Source: Brevundimonas sp.
GTDB taxonomy: Bacteria; Pseudomonadota; Alphaproteobacteria; Caulobacterales; Caulobacteraceae
NCBI GenBank assembly: GCA_036405055.1
Contig: DASWYI010000022.1
Span: forward strand, 3,967 to 67,966
Direction: 5' to 3'
Length of the DNA: 64,000 nucleotides
Positions 2,724 through 33,466 of this stretch are shown in pieces. Position 1 is the first letter of the stretch; every line of letters starts with the position of its first letter. The notes below the pieces were generated by a model. It worked only from the letters and a program-made list of their open reading frames with translations, was not told the origin of the DNA and did no database searches. A program made the position numbers and the translations under genes.

Positions 2724-3455
2724 TTAAACATCCAGTTTCGCGGCACTCCAGAGCCGTTCAGTCATCAAAGTGTCGATCTCTTTTGAAAGAGCTGCGGCTT
2801 CCTGAACGTGTGCTTGGGCCTCGGTAACCGGCCAAGGCATGATGTCCGGCATATCAAGAATCTGCCGCCACGTCCTTAAGCCCCTCTGGAGGCCCTGCGA
2901 CGTTTCTGTAAGCTTCGCGCGGATCGTGGGCTCAATGAAAATGCCGAACTGGATCGTGTGATTGTGGAACTCCATCGTTGCTCGATGCGCCTCGGCAAAG
3001 GCGATCCGATCTTGATAGGTCTGATAGACTTTGGATTTCTCAAAGCGGTCGGCGTCCCTGACGGCTTGTTTCTGGAAATCTTCCAGTTCGGTCTTGGCGA
3101 GGAACACTTCCAACTCCTCGGGTGACATCGTTCCCGGATCGGCAACCTCTCTTCCACTGGCAGTGACCATGCTGACGGCGCCCAATGCAGTCGTGAGCAA
3201 GTCCCACGACTTCGACAACGCCTCGAATTCGTGGTGGTGGAGCTTGGTGGCGCGATCCAACATGCCAGCGATCTTGGCCCGGAGTCGTTCGATCTCTTGC
3301 GCCTGAACGTGTTTGAGATTGTCCAACTGGCCTTGGAAATGCCTAGCCAGCCACCTGTCGATGTAGGCCTTGCCAAACCATACGGCGAAGCCGCCGACAA
3401 ATGTGAAGACTAACGCAAAGCGGCCGATCCACTCAAAGATCAGATTCCAATTCAT
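2724..3455 (-). CDS. hypothetical protein, N-terminal TM plus coiled coil, lower GC (likely acquired)
   Basis: 243 aa ORF; visibly more AT-rich codons than its neighbours. Confidence 0.7.
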   Translation of the reverse strand: MNWNLIFEWIGRFALVFTFVGGFAVWFGKAYIDRWLARHFQGQLDNLKHVQAQEIERLRAKIAGMLDRATKLHHHEFEALSKSWDLLTTALGAVSMVTASGREVADPGTMSPEELEVFLAKTELEDFQKQAVRDADRFEKSKVYQTYQDRIAFAEAHRATMEFHNHTIQFGIFIEPTIRAKLTETSQGLQRGLRTWRQILDMPDIMPWPVTEAQAHVQEAAALSKEIDTLMTERLWSAAKLDV

Positions 3456-3513
3456 CAGCCAGCCTTCTTGAAATTAGTCACAAGGATGGTCTTCCAGCAA
3501 AAGTGGAAACCAA

Positions 3514-26218: not shown

Positions 26219-26285
26219 GCCTTGCCTTTCATGGTGAACGCTGTTCGAGATGGGGCGTTAGGACCGCGCGCTTTTGGAGCATCGC

Positions 26286-26744
26286 ATGGCCAGACGAAGT
26301 CTGAGGGATATCGAGAAAATCTGGTCCAATGTCGAGGGGATCAAGAAGCTCTCCGACCGCGTGATCGGCATCGGCCCGTTCGGCGTCGGCATGGACGGCC
26401 TGCTGACCTGGGTGCCCGGGCTGGGCCTGGCCTACAGCGTCATCGCGGGGGGCTGGATCTTCATCCAGGGCCTTCGCGTCCGGGCCACGCCGTCGACCCT
26501 ACTGCGCATGGCCGGCTATCTGGGTCTGGACGCCGCGACCAGCGAGGTTCCGCTGGTCGGCGACGCGGTCGACTTCTTCTTCCAGGGCCACCTGATGGCG
26601 GCCAAGGCTCTGCAGAAGGACATCGAAAGCACCCACTGGGTCGAGGCCAGCGAGCGCGACGCCAAAGCCTCCGGCGACCACGACAGCCACCTCGGCGAAA
26701 TGCGCAGCCGAGGCCTGAAACGCATCGTCTATCTGCACGACTGA
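26286..26744 (+). CDS. DUF4112 family membrane protein
   Basis: GMDGLLTWVPGLG and VPLVGDAVDFFF motifs. Confidence 0.82.
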   Translation: MARRSLRDIEKIWSNVEGIKKLSDRVIGIGPFGVGMDGLLTWVPGLGLAYSVIAGGWIFIQGLRVRATPSTLLRMAGYLGLDAATSEVPLVGDAVDFFFQGHLMAAKALQKDIESTHWVEASERDAKASGDHDSHLGEMRSRGLKRIVYLHD

Positions 26745-26817
26745 GCGTCAGACACGTCCGCTTACCGGCGCAATGCGGGAGTCCGCTATCGACCCATAGC
26801 GGACATTAGCCGCGACC

Positions 26818-27195
26818 GTGTTAAGCTCACTTATGTTCGAAGTGCTCGCTCTTCAGCCACAGACCGTGCAGGCCGCCGAAATCTGTGAGGTGTTGGCCCA
26901 CCCTGCGGCATATGACGGCAAGCTGATTTCTATCTCGGGTATTTTCCGCACCGATTGGCATCACGGCGCGATCATCATTGGTGAACCCTGCGGCTGGGGC
27001 ATTGTCTTTGGCGGAAACGCAAATCTGGGCGAGCCTTGGACAAGGATCGAAGGCACGCGAGGCCACCACGACGTAAAAATCAGCATAGCGGTCATAGGTC
27101 GGTTCAGATGGAACCCTGACGATGCGAGTATGTATCCGCTGAAACATGTGATCGCGGTCGATGCGATCACCTCTCTCGAAATCCAACCGGAATGA
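26818..27195 (+). CDS. hypothetical protein (cassette ORF 1; possibly OB-fold-like)
   Basis: 125 aa lower-GC ORF filling the gap between repeats; CEVLAHPAAYDGKLISISG; alternative ATG at 26833. Confidence 0.65.
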   Translation: MLSSLMFEVLALQPQTVQAAEICEVLAHPAAYDGKLISISGIFRTDWHHGAIIIGEPCGWGIVFGGNANLGEPWTRIEGTRGHHDVKISIAVIGRFRWNPDDASMYPLKHVIAVDAITSLEIQPE

Positions 27196-27303
27196 CGCTC
27201 AAAGCCGACTGTCCGCTTTCGAGCCATCTGCAAACGTCCGCTTTCGACCCATTGCGGACATTTCGTTTAGCGGTGAAGTTGGCACGGGAGCTGTAGAAGC
27301 CAA

Positions 27304-27597
27304 ATGCCGATTTACCGTTTCATGGTGCATGGCACCGACGTGAGTGTGCCAAACAAGCGTCGCGGGTTCTTCACCACCCGACATTCATTTGGGCGCGATC
27401 AGGAACAAGCGGCGGCTAAAGTTTTGCGCCGCCTTAGCCGCGAGTTCACCTCGGGAGCATCCGCCCAGATTTGGGGGAGCGGTCCGCCCGATATGGTGAT
27501 CGAGGACTGTTGGAAGATCGGGGTCCATCAACTGTTAGCAGCCCCGAACCGGGGCAGCACTTTCTACGACGACCGTGACGAGCCAAACGTCCACTAA
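27304..27597 (+). CDS. hypothetical protein (cassette ORF 2)
   Basis: 97 aa lower-GC ORF; its stop codon lies inside the next degenerate repeat (GTCCAC-TAA). Confidence 0.65.
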   Translation: MPIYRFMVHGTDVSVPNKRRGFFTTRHSFGRDQEQAAAKVLRRLSREFTSGASAQIWGSGPPDMVIEDCWKIGVHQLLAAPNRGSTFYDDRDEPNVH

Positions 27598-27665
27598 CCA
27601 GGCGAACGCGCCCGTCCGCTATCGACCCCTTGCGGTCGTCTGCCACCAAGGAGAGATGAAGGGCC

Positions 27666-27830
27666 ATGAGGCGGCTGACTAAAAAGGAAATCTGGTTGGG
27701 ACGGCTATTCGGGATAGTTGTCTCAGCTGTCCCGGCCTATCTGGTTGGCGAAACCACGACGCAGCGTGTGATGCTCTACGTCTTGTTTGTGGCCGGGGCA
27801 TTACTGCTTCAGGCCAAAACAATCGACTGA
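27666..27830 (+). CDS. 54-aa two-TM small protein (cassette ORF 3; not in ORF track)
   Basis: Own translation: MRRLTKKEIWLGRLFGIVVSAVPAYLVGETTTQRVMLYVLFVAGALLLQAKTID*; purine-rich upstream region. Confidence 0.55.
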   Translation: MRRLTKKEIWLGRLFGIVVSAVPAYLVGETTTQRVMLYVLFVAGALLLQAKTID

Positions 27831-28005
27831 AGCCCCAAGTCCAGGTGACCAGCTGAGTGTCCGCTTTCCCCCCATAGCGGACACTCCAACCGTCCGCTTT
27901 CCGGCTCCGTTCATCCCTCTTGCCGACGTCTGAACAGGCACCGTCGTCGCGCGCCGCCGCATTCAGCTTGACGGTATGCCCCGTCGCCCGGCTTAGTGGC
28001 GCGGC

Positions 28006-28563
28006 ATGAGCTTCTCGATGACCCGCGACGAACTGGCCCTCGCCCTTGGCCGCACGGCCCAGGGCGACCGCGCGGCCTTCCGTTCGGTCTATGAGGCGAC
28101 GTCCGCGAAACTGTTGGGCGTGTGCCTGCGTATCTTGGCTGACCGACAACTGGCCGAGGACGTCTTGCAGGACACCTATCTCACCGTCTGGAGGAAGGCC
28201 GAGAGCTTCGACGCATCGCGGGCCAGCCCGATCACCTGGCTGGTGACCATCGCGCGCAACCGCTCGATCGACCGGCTGCGTTCCGGCAAGCCGGTGCGGT
28301 TCGCCGCGCCGGTCGAGGCGGCGCACGATCTGGCCGACGAGGGGCCCCGGGCCGACACCCTGATCGAGAAGGGCGATGACGCCCGCCGCCTGACCACCTG
28401 CCTGGACGAACTGGACGAGAAGGCCGCGCGCTGCATCCGCACCGCCTTCTTCGAGGGCGTGACCTATGATGTGCTGGCCGAGCGTGAGGGGACGCCGCTG
28501 GGCACGATGAAGAGCTGGATCCGGCGGGGGCTGCAACGGCTGAAGGCCTGCCTCGAACGATGA
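28006..28563 (+). CDS. ECF sigma-70 factor (SigK-like)
   Basis: GDRAAF…AEDVLQD…W…WL.TIARNRSIDRLR and PLGTMKSWIRRGL motifs. Confidence 0.93.
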   Translation: MSFSMTRDELALALGRTAQGDRAAFRSVYEATSAKLLGVCLRILADRQLAEDVLQDTYLTVWRKAESFDASRASPITWLVTIARNRSIDRLRSGKPVRFAAPVEAAHDLADEGPRADTLIEKGDDARRLTTCLDELDEKAARCIRTAFFEGVTYDVLAEREGTPLGTMKSWIRRGLQRLKACLER

Positions 28564-29547: not shown

Positions 29548-31017
29548 ATGAGTGACGACGACAGCGCGCGCATCGCGTTGCCCTATCTGGCCGCAGGTCA
29601 GATGCAGAAGCATGTGACCCTGAACGAGGCCCTGACCCGCCTTGATGTGCTGGTGCAGACGGCGGTGGTCAGCCGCACGGCGGTCACGCAGCCCGCCGAC
29701 CCCGGCGACGGCGATCTCTACATCCTGCCCGAAGACGCCGAGGGCGCGGCATGGGACAGCAAACCTGAGGGCGCTCTGATGCGGTTCGAGGCCGGCGGCT
29801 GGACTGTCGTGCCCGCTCCTGACGGCATGGTCGCCGTGGTGCTGGACCACGGCGAACTGGTCGTGCGCCGCGACGGCGGCTGGACCCCGCTCGGCGAGCT
29901 GCTGGGCCAGGTGCAGCAACTGACCCGGCTCGGGGTCGGCACGACGGCGGATGCGGACAATCCCTTCGCCGCCAAGCTGAATAAGGCCCTGTGGACGGCG
30001 CTGGAGACTGGCTGCGGCGGTGACGGCGACCTGCGCCTTACGTTGAACAAGCAGGGCGCAGGCGACGTCCTGTCCCTGCTGTTCCAATCCGGATACGGCG
30101 GTCGGGCCGAACTGGGCCTGATCGGCGACGACGATCTGCGACTCAAGGTCAGCGCCGACGGCTCCACCTGGCATGAGGCCTTGTCGGTGGACCGCGCCAC
30201 GGGCCGGGTCACAACCACGCTGGGCGCACTGCGCAGCGAGGAAACAGTTTTCACCACTGACGGTTCGTGGACTGCGCCTGCCTGGGCCCGCAGGGTCGAG
30301 GTCCTGTGCGTCGGCGCCGGCGGCGGCGGAGCCGGCGGCCAGCTCGGCGCGGCGGGCACGAACCGCTTTGGCGGCGGCGGCGGGGGCGCGGGCGGCGTCA
30401 GCGTCGCGGTCTGGCCGGCGGACGCACTGACCGGCCCCCTGACCGTCACCGTCGGAGCGGGCGGTCTCGGCGGCGCCTCCAACACGGGGGGGCAGTCGGG
30501 CGAGGCGTCCAGCCTGACGATAGGCGGCGTGACCCTGCTGACCGGCGCGGGCGGGCAGGGCGGCCTCGCGACAGGGGCCGGGGGAGGCGGCGGCCTTGGC
30601 GTTCCCGCATCCAACGGCGGCGGAGCCTCTCTGCTGGCGGCGACGGCCCAGTCAGGCGCGACGCTGGCGCATCCGCTGGCTTCGGGCGGCGGCGGTGCGG
30701 GCGGCGCGCTGGATGCCGCCAACACGGCTCGACAGGGCGGCGTGGGCGGCGACGGCGGGCTGCTGGCCGTCACCACCGGCGGCGGAACGGGCGGCAGCGG
30801 TCCGGGCGGGGACGGCGATGCGGCGGCGGACCTCGACCTCGGTTGGACAGGTGGCGGAGGCGGGGGCGGGGGCGCCTCAGCCGCTGGGACCGGCCAGACC
30901 GGAGGCGATGGGGGCGATCATGGCGCGGGCGGCGGCGGCGGCGGCGCGGGTCTGAGTGCGGGCGGGGCCGGCGGTGACGGCTCGGGGGGCCTCGTCATCC
31001 TGAGGGCCGTCGGATGA
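29548..31017 (+). CDS. DUF2793 protein with glycine-rich C-terminus (phage/GTA tail fibre-like)
   Basis: LPYLAAGQMQKHVTLNEAL.RLD, RAELGL.GDDD…KVSADGSTW, then a phage-type Gly-rich domain. Confidence 0.85.
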   Translation: MSDDDSARIALPYLAAGQMQKHVTLNEALTRLDVLVQTAVVSRTAVTQPADPGDGDLYILPEDAEGAAWDSKPEGALMRFEAGGWTVVPAPDGMVAVVLDHGELVVRRDGGWTPLGELLGQVQQLTRLGVGTTADADNPFAAKLNKALWTALETGCGGDGDLRLTLNKQGAGDVLSLLFQSGYGGRAELGLIGDDDLRLKVSADGSTWHEALSVDRATGRVTTTLGALRSEETVFTTDGSWTAPAWARRVEVLCVGAGGGGAGGQLGAAGTNRFGGGGGGAGGVSVAVWPADALTGPLTVTVGAGGLGGASNTGGQSGEASSLTIGGVTLLTGAGGQGGLATGAGGGGGLGVPASNGGGASLLAATAQSGATLAHPLASGGGGAGGALDAANTARQGGVGGDGGLLAVTTGGGTGGSGPGGDGDAAADLDLGWTGGGGGGGGASAAGTGQTGGDGGDHGAGGGGGGAGLSAGGAGGDGSGGLVILRAVG

Positions 31018-31175
31018 GCGGCTTCACCCCTCGCGGCGCCCTGCATCCGCCCCTTCTCGACGCCGAGACCTGGGACGTCCCCGACCACCTGACCGATGAC
31101 GATTGCCTGATCGAAACCGGCGCCGAGCAGCGCCGGACCCGCGGCGATCTCGATCTGGAGCATGACAATGACTGA
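31014..31175 (+). CDS. possible 53-aa acidic small protein
   Basis: ATGA overlap with the DUF2793 stop; MSGFTPRGALHPPLLDAETWDVPDHLTDDDCLIETGAEQRRTRGDLDLEHDND*. Confidence 0.35.
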   Translation: MSGFTPRGALHPPLLDAETWDVPDHLTDDDCLIETGAEQRRTRGDLDLEHDND

Positions 31176-31422
31176 ACCCCAATCCATGCCCGAGGCGCGC
31201 TGGCTGTGGCGCCGCCTCTATGTCTTCGCCTTGACTTTCGGGGTGTGGCTGTTGCTGGCGCGGGCGGTGATGCGCGCCTCAACTGACAGCCTGCCGCGCC
31301 TGACCGAGGGGCTGATGTTGCTGCAGGCCCTGACGCTGGTGCTCTACCTCGTCGCGCCGACAACGCAGCAGATCGCGGCCCTGCTGGCGAACCTGAAGCT
31401 GCGGCTGGGGGGATCGGCATGA
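31162..31422 (+). CDS. putative holin (two TM helices)
   Basis: 86 aa, two hydrophobic segments, several closely spaced Met starts, ATGA-coupled to the endolysin. Confidence 0.6.
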   Translation: MTMTEPQSMPEARWLWRRLYVFALTFGVWLLLARAVMRASTDSLPRLTEGLMLLQALTLVLYLVAPTTQQIAALLANLKLRLGGSA

Positions 31423-31886
31423 GCTTCTCCTTCTCCGATCGCTCGCGCGCCGAACTGAAGGGCGTGCATCCCGACCTGATCGCGGTGGTCGAGCGCGCCC
31501 TTGTCCTGACGACCCAGGACTTCTGCGTCCATGACGGGGTTCGCACCCCGGAGCAGCAGAAGGCGCTGGTTCATGCGGGCGCCTCAAAGACTCTCAACAG
31601 CCGCCACCTGATCCGCTCCGATGGCTTTGGCCATGCGGTTGATCTGGTGCCATGGATCGGCGGCAAGCCGCGCTGGGACTGGACGCCGATCTATCGGGTC
31701 GCTGAGGCTGTGCGGCGCGCAGGCGTGGAGCGAGGTGTCCGCCTGACCTGGGGCGGGGTCTGGGACCGGCTGCTGGCCGATCTGCCTGAAACGGCGACGG
31801 GACTGGAGGCGGCGGTCCGCGCCTACACCGTCCGCCACCCCGGCCCGGACTTCATCGACGGCCCCCACTACGAGTTGGCGGCATGA
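31419..31886 (+). CDS. M15 family peptidase endolysin (L-Ala-D-Glu peptidase type)
   Basis: FS.RS…L.GVHPDL, G.RT.EQQ, SRHL…GHAVDL, WGG.W and DGPHYEL motifs. Confidence 0.9.
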   Translation: MSFSFSDRSRAELKGVHPDLIAVVERALVLTTQDFCVHDGVRTPEQQKALVHAGASKTLNSRHLIRSDGFGHAVDLVPWIGGKPRWDWTPIYRVAEAVRRAGVERGVRLTWGGVWDRLLADLPETATGLEAAVRAYTVRHPGPDFIDGPHYELAA

Positions 31887-32218
31887 TCGCCCGCATCCTC
31901 GCGGGCGGCCTCGCGGTCGCGCTGGCGGCCGCCGCTGTCCAGACTTGGCGCATCGACCGGCTCCGTGCCGGGAACGCCGCCCTCCAGGCTGAGGCCGAGG
32001 CCGCCGAGATCTGGCGGGTTCAGGCCCGTGACAACGCCGAGCGCTCGGCCGCGCGCTGCATCGACCAGATCGCCACGGCCCGCCTGTCCGCCCAACGCAT
32101 CGAAACCATCATTGAAAGGCCCGTCCATGTGGATCCTCAAGGCTGCGCTCGCCGCGAGCTTGTGCCTGCTGACCAGCTGCGCGACGCCCTCCAGCCCCGC
32201 CAAACCCCTGCCGAGTGA
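31883..32218 (+). CDS. putative i-spanin (Rz-like)
   Basis: N-terminal TM followed by Ala-rich coiled coil with Cys; directly after the endolysin. Confidence 0.65.
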   Translation: MIARILAGGLAVALAAAAVQTWRIDRLRAGNAALQAEAEAAEIWRVQARDNAERSAARCIDQIATARLSAQRIETIIERPVHVDPQGCARRELVPADQLRDALQPRQTPAE

Positions 32219-32396
32219 GTGCGTCCCCGTCGAACGCGCGCCGCCCCTGCCCGACGGCGCCGGCCTCGTTGCGCCCGCCACCGACCAGGAGCGTTCCGCC
32301 ACCCGTCTGTTCCTCACCTGGGTCGCCGAAATCGTCCGCATCGGCGACGCCAACGCCGCCCGGGCGGAGGACGGGCGGCGGGCGTGTTCGAGTTAG
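32127..32396 (+). CDS. putative o-spanin lipoprotein (Rz1-like), overlapping Rz in +1 frame
   Basis: MWILKAALAASLCLLTS-C lipobox, Pro-rich mature region, start inside the Rz-like gene. Confidence 0.65.
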   Translation: MWILKAALAASLCLLTSCATPSSPAKPLPSECVPVERAPPLPDGAGLVAPATDQERSATRLFLTWVAEIVRIGDANAARAEDGRRACSS

Positions 32397-32632: not shown

Positions 32633-33466
32633 ATGGCGCTGAACAGCGTGAACACGAACGCTGGGGCTATGATCGCCCTCCAGAACCTGCAAGTCACCAA
32701 TGACGAGCTTGCCACGGTTCAATCCCGCATCAACACCGGCAAGAAGGTCGCCTCGGCCAAGGATAACGGCGCTGTTTGGGCTATCGCCCAGAACCAGCGT
32801 TCGGAAATCGGCGCGCTGAACGCGGTCAAGGACAGCCTGCAACGCGGCCAGTCGGCCACGGACGTGGCCGTCGCCGCCGGTGAATCCGTCTCGGATCTGC
32901 TGCTGCAGCTGAAGGAAAAGGCCCTGGCCGCGACCGACAGCTCGCTGACCACCTCGGCCCGCAAGGCCCTGAACGAAGACTTCAAGTCGATCCGCGACCA
33001 GATCGCCACGGTCGTCTCGAACGCCAGCTTCAACGGCGTCAACCTGATCAACAACTCGACCGGCACGAACGGGTTCAAGGCCCTGTCGAACGCGTCGGGC
33101 TCGACCATCAAGGTGGCTCCGGAAAACCTGTCGCTGGGCGGCGCCAACGTGACCGTCGCTGCGACGACCACGATCGGCACCGCGACGCTGGCCACGACCG
33201 CCCTGGGTCTGGTCAACGCCTCGATCAACAACGTGTCGGCTTCGCTGGCCCGTCTCGGCACCGGCTCCAAGTCGCTGGGCACCCACCTGAGCTTCGTCTC
33301 GAAGCTGCAGGACACCCTGGAAGCCGGCGTCGGCAACCTGGTGGATGCCGATCTGGCCAAGGAAAGCGCTCGCCTCCAGGCGCTGCAGACCAAGCAACAG
33401 CTGGGTGTGCAGGCCCTGTCGATCGCCAACTCTTCGACTTCGACCCTGCTCGGCCTGTTCCGCTAA
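32633..33466 (+). CDS. flagellin (Caulobacter FljK/FljL type)
   Basis: NSVNTN.GAMIALQNL and GVGNLVDADLAKESARLQALQTKQQLG motifs. Confidence 0.96.
   Translation: MALNSVNTNAGAMIALQNLQVTNDELATVQSRINTGKKVASAKDNGAVWAIAQNQRSEIGALNAVKDSLQRGQSATDVAVAAGESVSDLLLQLKEKALAATDSSLTTSARKALNEDFKSIRDQIATVVSNASFNGVNLINNSTGTNGFKALSNASGSTIKVAPENLSLGGANVTVAATTTIGTATLATTALGLVNASINNVSASLARLGTGSKSLGTHLSFVSKLQDTLEAGVGNLVDADLAKESARLQALQTKQQLGVQALSIANSSTSTLLGLFR

Follow-up and report, generated by a model that had tools for sequence, protein, structure and literature searches.

The subject of this work is a 1,219-bp insert (positions 26745–27963, + strand) in a 64,000-nucleotide stretch of a Brevundimonas sp. contig (DASWYI010000022.1 of assembly GCA_036405055.1), which as a whole is called the window below. 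The insert lies between a DUF4112 gene and an extracytoplasmic function (ECF) sigma factor gene and carries three small genes bounded by copies of a short palindromic site. We are highly confident that cassettes are exchanged at these sites in a site-specific manner, and the arrays represent a real, likely undescribed and functionally integron-like system. The full model, in which the window holds an orphan three-cassette array whose sites are targeted in trans by a tyrosine recombinase of about 208 residues made of the catalytic domain only, appears to us probable. With less assurance, and only on balance, we favour a more general reading as well. According to it, the Pseudomonadota would possess a second, independently evolved cassette system, in which the stripped recombinase travels as a cassette of its own and stocks orphan arrays in trans, the 24-bp sites supply −35 promoter elements, and exchange at the Z/fun locus of phage P2 has the same basis.

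The four repeat units begin at positions 26781, 27236, 27614 and 27859, spaced 455, 378 and 245 bp apart, exactly where the initial annotation of this DNA had placed them. Their number exceeds chance, as the window contains 12 matches to the site pattern against 2.5 expected and 12 was reached in none of 100 shuffles. In a site profile seeded from 85 sites, the window's four among them, these units score 31–47 bits, while the best other locus in the 2.03-Mb source genome (G000, 74% complete) reaches 12.7 bits, and the window array is the sole such locus found in this assembly. The conserved core proved to be shorter than the 27 bp initially described: it is a 24-bp palindrome with two 9-bp arms and a 6-bp directional spacer (9-6-9), the arms of the sites being near-identical to each other. 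Nor are the four units equivalent. Units 1–3 have an extra box 25 bp upstream, whereas in unit 4 the spacer is of another kind and the extra box is placed 33 bp downstream, so the window follows the general grammar of the sites described below: three doublets and then a terminal site with a +33 box.

The left end of the array is formed by the accessory box at 26756–26765, recognised by the recurrence of boxes at −25, and by core site 1 (26781–26804), which has the spacer CGACCC, a putative exchange point at its positions 9–11 and a right-arm hexamer, TAGCGG, that is a candidate −35 element. Cassette 1 is closed by the box at 27211–27220, the upstream member of a 25-bp doublet, and is followed by core site 2 (27236–27259), the top-scoring site of the genome (46.7 bits), with TTGCGG as its candidate −35 element. 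The box closing cassette 2 (27589–27598) overlaps the stop of the second gene and precedes core site 3 (27614–27637; 31.2 bits). The terminal core site (27859–27882), with the spacer CCCCCC and C at position 11, is accompanied by the accessory box at 27892–27901, 33 bp downstream of the site start, and by a right tail of about 60 bp (27902–27963) in which a hidden Markov model (HMM) search found no recombinase remnant. All three cassette open reading frames (ORFs; 125, 97 and 54 aa as first listed) are on the + strand. As noted from the outset, they are visibly poorer in GC than their surroundings (0.53–0.59, and 0.63–0.68 at third codon positions, versus 0.66–0.74 and 0.87–0.91 in the flanking DUF4112, sigma and anti-sigma genes), and they stop just before or inside the next box or site (respectively 15 bp short of it, 9 bp within it and 28 bp short of it).

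The alleles of this locus provide evidence that the slot is variable. The comparison excluded the sequencing runs X1–X4, a possible source of the window itself. Metagenome contigs of closer relatives, from runs X5 and X9 of two studies, join position 26744 to 27964 with six other letters between and lack the whole 1,219 bp, and in G064, the closest GTDB relative, about 50 bp separates the DUF4112 and sigma genes. Among the 29 best-matching relatives, the sigma gene adjoins DUF4112, within about 50–80 bp, in 16, and a site follows DUF4112 in none. A single contig of run X17 matches the window at 26560–26804 and again at 27870–28120, with 1,139 other letters between. In contigs of X6, X13 and X15 the left end is intact before the sequence departs or the contig stops, and the right end is retained in X6 and X15 as well; the right tail is common to X6, X15 and X17. 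In X6 and X17, identity to the window resumes at positions 11–12 of the terminal site (27869/27870). The interval between DUF4112 and sigma, which the initial annotation had proposed to compare across strains, is therefore either empty or filled with other cargo between the same end sites, and the window array is a real variable cassette slot. Gain, loss and reordering of cassettes at the sites, the behaviour of an integron-type array, are all found.

The site pattern was present in 25 of 36 same-genus genomes and in 1 of 24 genomes from elsewhere in the order, the control matching 4 times within the genus; the terminal-site pattern was found in 36 of 80 further genomes with no control matches; and a strict doublet pattern retrieved 44 GTDB stretches, mostly from Caulobacteraceae. 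About two thirds of the genus genomes sampled yielded sites. Across the phylum a strict pattern matched 14 of 351 genomes versus 6 control genomes, which is weak taken alone, though the matches have related spacers. A search of plasmid DNA with the doublet gave 5 weak matches, and a search of phages with an enterobacterial site gave chance matches only.

Rather than being scattered, an outcome that would have spoken against the initial proposal, the sites cluster in co-oriented arrays, which occupy many unrelated intergenic loci with up to 6 terminal sites per genome. Among 40 loci picked by the terminal site, 33 had at least two co-oriented sites and 1 had an opposite site. The cassettes have a median length of 535 bp (n = 275) and a mean GC of 0.60. 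The co-oriented layout reported for the window holds elsewhere for the sites but not strictly for the genes: in 62–64% of cassettes the longest ORF shares the strand of the site, shadow ORFs diluting this figure, and gene co-orientation is a bias and no rule. A CRISPR array was rejected, as it had been at first inspection, because the gaps are too long and coding (245–455 bp in the window). Terminal sites were observed tail-to-tail with a common short linker at L051 (in two places), L284 and L321, and first-type sites head-to-head, 83 bp apart, at L071 and L074; arrays are therefore also linked in opposing orientations. On contig C41 of G000, a sequence suspected to be a decayed site scored −37.8 and was dropped. 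When 36 other arrays were mapped onto G000, 10 bridging pairs were obtained and no precise empty-site junction.

This distribution, together with the terminal-to-first, tail-to-tail and head-to-head junctions and the absence of the entire 1,219 bp in relatives, would suit a scheme without any platform, in which units or whole arrays are non-autonomous transposon-like elements of the same recombinase that nest in the ends of earlier units. We nevertheless regard such nesting as improbable. The end sites of the window locus persist while the cargo between them differs; where two arrays hold one and the same cassette, the cargo differs by 3.3% and the right portion of the terminal site by 7 letters in about 35 nt, so these were not inherited together; and there are neither terminal inverted repeats nor a clean target duplication at the window locus. 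At another array, L285, about 29 bp of host sequence occurs as a diverged duplicate on both sides and as a single copy in G000 (contig C39, about 75206–75234).

Cassettes that recur in different arrays of one genome allow the putative point of exchange to be placed within the site. Three pairs of cassettes were found that are situated in different arrays of the same genome with differing neighbours and share 99.7%, 98.4% and 96.7% identity. This identity starts and stops at site positions 9–11, i.e., at the left edge of the spacer. Enlargement of the set to 278 cassettes gave no additional full-length pair. In 273 unique sites the extra boxes peak at −25 (148 sites) and at +33 (43 sites), and the two box types go with different letters at position 11: G11 accompanies the −25 box in 154 of 215 cases and C11 the +33 box in 34 of 55. 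Recurrent 'empty' units of 24–25 bp, in which the spacer is of the terminal type and the right arm is weakened, were also seen between cassettes (e.g., L053, L077 and L110).

The repeat was initially described as a hairpin. The symmetry is there, and folding is unsupported because the arms barely covary: 1552 paired positions were counted versus 1537 ± 8 after shuffling, with an excess at pair 9/16 only, and a T–T mismatch occupies pair 7/18 in 71 of 227 sites. Such low covariation and the mismatches favour recognition of the sequence on duplex DNA. The same data bear on the view that the sites are atypical attC sites (a cluster of attC sites lacking an integrase, CALIN, served by IntI) or repetitive extragenic palindrome (REP)-like hairpins served by an HUH (Y1) transposase. 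One gene per repeat, a cargo typical of integron cassettes (Hfx_Cass5, GNAT, glyoxalase) and sites foldable in silico would all agree with it. However, no site contains a GTTRRRY or RYYYAAC core, the only occurrences between 26740 and 27970 (one GTTRRRY at 26820 and one RYYYAAC at 27181) being in ORF1 or its leader. The integrase model TIGR02249 stayed under its cut-off in 5 of 5 array-bearing genomes (G000 being 74% complete), Y1_Tnp (PF01797) was found in none of the five while the control was positive in 6 of 14, and Rfam gave no match at E ≤ 1, a CRISPR repeat included. The absence of attC cores and IntI noted at the outset is thus borne out, and an attC or REP identity of the sites is hardly credible. 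Of the two enzymes guessed at in the same place, a recombinase is supported, by a candidate of the catalytic-domain-only tyrosine type, and an HUH transposase is not.

The right arm of the site may have a second function. Of 227 first or internal sites, 52 have an ATG 25–28 nt beyond them, versus 12.6 expected (P ~ 1e-16, a value that counts for less than it appears to, because the genomes are related and hence not independent of each other). At a spacing of 16–18 nt a −10-like hexamer is present in 34 of these 52 ATG-proximal sites and in 25 of the 175 others, and TTGCGG is found in the right arm of 27 of the 52 and 35 of the 175. The ATG/−10 pattern suggests near-leaderless transcripts for which the site serves as the −35, and the right arm (TTGCGG or TAGCGG) likely doubles as this promoter element. 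About a quarter of the cassettes would then carry a near-leaderless promoter of their own via the right arm, independent of one platform promoter.

This strong −35/−10/ATG signal, along with a 9-6-9 palindrome that would suit a dimeric regulator, could also mean that the repeats function as promoter or regulator sites, the cargo being exchanged by homology-driven recombination between short repeats with no dedicated enzyme involved. We consider this very improbable. Terminal sites face host DNA and lack the promoter pattern, a mismatch-containing 24-bp repeat is short for RecA, and the fixed position of the boundary and the tight linkage to a recombinase, described below, indicate a dedicated enzyme.

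The candidate recombinase, a protein of about 208 aa (P0001) that adjoins two arrays of genome G023, was found by a genome search with PF00589, which it matches with E = 2e-16; clustering of the 868 ORFs around the first 83 site loci had yielded no recurrent recombinase or transposase. Residues R58, K86, R158 (or 159), H181 and Y190 show little or no variation across 33 homologues, and the predicted model (predicted local distance difference test score, pLDDT, 84) resembles the catalytic domains of Xer, Cre and Tn1549 Int, with XerH, XerA, Cre and Tn1549 Int as Foldseek matches. P0001 thus has the catalytic residues (R-K-H-R-H-Y) and the fold of the tyrosine recombinase superfamily; a single-sequence search against the PDB gave no match. 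The protein consists of the catalytic domain only. Its profile aligns to residues 131–280 of XerD without an insertion, about 35 residues precede this part, residues 1–26 have no secondary structure in the model, and there is no core-binding domain. In the available part of PMC8138268 the core-binding domain is treated as ubiquitous among tyrosine recombinases, and the classification given there names no group lacking it.

Matches to the recombinase occur in 14 of 55 genus genomes (fragments included), in 10 of 301 genomes in the class, in 398 plasmid records and at 50 viral loci. It is the position of the gene that ties it to the arrays. Among the 15 genus copies with an intact C-terminus, a terminal site is situated 57–70 bp past the stop codon on the opposite strand in 14 when judged by eye and in 10 when judged by score, so that the array reads toward the gene, which sits just beyond the terminal-type site and converges on the array; the recombinase of G064 has arrays on both sides. 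In contrast, the surrounding 1.5 kb contained no site at any of 28 other PF00589 loci. At phage and plasmid loci, homologues with 55–70% identity are accompanied by sites with the same arms and other spacers. Two plasmids, L248 (E. coli, CP137937) and L249 (Pantoea, NZ_CP144369), carry homologues at about 58% with cognate sites nearby. On L249 there are five sites, and a further recombinase copy, which is broken, lies amid small genes that include GNAT.

Taken together, these observations would fit the following mechanism. Recombinase subunits may recognise the GTCCGCTTT boxes in double-stranded DNA and bind there, and strand exchange would occur at the left-hand border of the 6-bp spacer. A cassette would then comprise the spacer and right arm of one site, the gene, and the left arm of the next site; it would be excised as a circle and reinserted at another site. 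The circular intermediates and the action of the recombinase on the sites are what we infer from the sequences. As CGACCC would have to recombine with CC(A/C)CCC spacers, the process would tolerate spacer mismatches, perhaps by a single strand exchange that is resolved by replication. The accessory boxes at −25 and +33 would bias the point of cassette entry.

A number of findings weigh against this scheme. The mapping of the crossover depends on three cassette pairs. The innermost arm pair, 9/16, covaries (133 versus 114.7 ± 4.2 in shuffles) and is therefore a poor fit to a crossover inside position 10, unless kinship of the sites is responsible. Twelve sites combine G11 with a +33 box, which the site classes do not explain; nor do they explain the 25-bp doublet units, one of which travels with the upstream cassette in one pair and is absent from another. 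In the window itself ORF1 and ORF3 both have the 28-nt ATG offset, and the best −10 of ORF1 is at a spacing of 19 nt while ORF3 has none by the rule applied to the other sites. The recombinase profile found no match in G000 (74% complete), G005, G009 or G031, and among 70 terminal sites that had been selected by the site only, just 3 had the gene nearby. In G026 (L064 from 1861 onward, L329) the part of the recombinase gene found beyond the terminal site is limited to its last 24 codons. Finally, a site-like motif precedes the recombinase gene in 11 of 13 copies, so the gene could be cargo. This GGCGC-type motif is conserved 60–72 bp upstream of the start (L161–L179), with a box ahead of it in several copies; the other 2 of the 13 have a terminal-type site upstream instead.

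Some of these points also speak for the rival view that cassettes are exchanged at the sites by another enzyme, host XerC/XerD or some other, and that the small recombinase is a frequent passenger cassette. The gene is missing from most arrays and from several array-rich genomes, it has site-like motifs on both sides in the manner of cargo, and the only two PF00589 matches in G000 are XerD- and XerC-like; the site geometry, presumably 11-6-11-like, would also resemble dif. We hold this view to be unlikely, if less so than the other alternatives discussed here. The position of the recombinase gene relative to the terminal site is fixed and convergent, the site family accompanies recombinase homologues whose identity is as low as about 55%, G003 and G018, both with no pattern matches, likewise possess XerC/XerD-type genes, and no site was found within 1.5 kb of any Xer-type locus. 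We therefore retain the catalytic-domain-only recombinase as the likely enzyme acting on the sites. The recombinase gene is probably itself a cassette, judging from the motifs around it, and the 24-codon remnant in G026 suggests that some orphan arrays arise through loss of this gene.

Comparison with known systems shows both likeness and difference. As in integrons and CALINs, the arrays consist of mostly single-gene, co-oriented, low-GC cassettes and many of them are orphan; as in integrons, a distinct terminal site adjoins a tyrosine recombinase gene, exchange would take place at one edge of a non-identical spacer, and Hfx_Cass5 cargo is common to both. Unlike IntI, P0001 has no core-binding domain and no integron-specific insertion in the catalytic domain, a feature of IntI described in PMC8138268, and it gave no match to TIGR02249. 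The sites differ from attC in being fixed 24-bp, sequence-conserved 9-6-9 palindromes with neither attC cores nor arm covariation. The intI gene lies upstream of its array and is divergent, while here the recombinase gene is found at the downstream end and is convergent. There are also several arrays per genome at unrelated loci, and the likely source of the −35 element is the individual site, not a platform Pc promoter.

The pdif modules of Acinetobacter plasmids, in which XerC/XerD act on short core sites with a 6-bp spacer and genes are swapped in trans, are similar in that gene modules are bounded by short sites with a 6-bp spacer. They differ from the present sites, which are symmetric with identical arms, mostly direct and supplied with accessory boxes, and which appear to be served by a dedicated mobile recombinase instead of host Xer. 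Invertases of the FimB/FimE type are likewise tyrosine recombinases of about 200 aa without the N-terminal domain. P0001, however, matches no NCBIfam invertase model (E ≤ 0.01), although XerC/D fragments do, and its sites are direct repeats around variable cargo and not the borders of an invertible switch.

The nearest precedent for these sites are the Z/fun repeats of phage P2. In the P2 genome (NC_001895) the fun(Z) gene is flanked by two 9-6-9 sites, with the arms GTCCACTCT..AAAGCGGAC on the left and TTCCGCTTC..AAAGGAAAC on the right. They were located at L265:1336–1359 and about 3434–3457 and have the arms of the window sites in opposed orientation with other spacers; we take them to be the published inverted repeats of P2 Z/fun. 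Nilsson, Karlsson and Haggard-Ljungquist reportedly proposed site-specific recombination at Z/fun in the title of a 2004 paper (Mol Biol Evol 21:1), and we know of no recombinase assigned to these repeats. The P2 arrangement differs in having two opposed sites around one slot with GGCACA and CGCTCA spacers, whereas the arrays described here are chromosomal and multi-cassette, with direct repeats and CGACCC/CCACCC spacers. In the accessible parts of PMC9122126 and PMC13586616 the mechanism of exchange at the P2/P4 hotspots is left open. If our model is true, it offers a candidate enzyme and a mapped crossover for this question, and the same enzyme family would account for exchange at the anti-phage Z/fun locus of P2.

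No description of such a system was found in the literature, subscription journals being largely uncovered by our search. Tools of the IntegronFinder type would miss the arrays because attC and IntI are absent. The 24-bp motif by itself retrieves hundreds of cassettes and so makes a pool of mobile small genes searchable. The enzyme is a test case of a tyrosine recombinase working without a core-binding domain and, if the model is true, a recombinase of about 208 aa with short sites may become a compact tool for genome engineering. Equally, if true, the arrays would be a gene-collecting system parallel to integrons and made from different parts.

The cargo is mostly of unfamiliar families. Pfam names 34 of 148 cassette ORFs, among them GNATs, glyoxalase, barstar and the integron cassette protein Hfx_Cass5, and 114 of the 148 have no Pfam family; some of the large Pfam-matched ORFs are probably host genes between arrays. 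The cassette at L015:1561–1851 encodes the Hfx_Cass5 member (E = 1e-25), hinting at a gene pool common to these arrays and integrons. PADLOC matched none of the 68 cassette ORFs scanned (about 80 further ORFs were outside that scan), so that a known defence role is unsupported.

In the window, the first cassette gene (26833–27195, + strand) more likely starts at the ATG at 26833, 28 nt past the site, because the database protein has 120 aa; the strand of the gene is as first annotated, and its length would then be 120 aa in place of 125. It has no Pfam, NCBIfam or PADLOC match, its predicted model (predicted TM-score, pTM, 0.81) resembles OB-folds (Atlas), and it has one homologue, at 76%, and none in 250 other genus genomes searched. 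The second gene (27304–27597, + strand, 97 aa) belongs to a conserved family with 12 other homologues at 56–84%. At 17 metagenome loci of ORF2 homologues the right arm is found upstream in 8, 27–44 nt ahead of the ATG, and the left arm at the stop in 10, both being present in 7. Site halves thus accompany these homologues in 11 of the 17 loci, as expected of the cassette boundaries originally proposed. The third gene (27666–27830, + strand, 54 aa), with its ATG 28 nt past the site, encodes a likely small membrane protein with one homologue at 77%. Its match to Flavi_M was under the Pfam cut-off and is likely a hydrophobic-helix artefact.

The flanking genes are host-like, as initially annotated, by Pfam. 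The DUF4112 gene on the left (26274–26744, + strand; PF13430, E = 1e-14) is present in 98 of 121 genus genomes. The ECF sigma gene on the right (28006–28563, + strand; Sigma70_r2/r4_2) is accompanied by an RskA-type anti-sigma gene, and a TTGACG upstream of it falls just outside the insert. Further downstream, at 29548–32396 and before a flagellin-like ORF (32633–33466), a run of ORFs resembles by eye what we take to be a phage tail/lysis module, presumably comprising a glycine-rich protein, a small membrane protein, a peptidase and a spanin-like pair.

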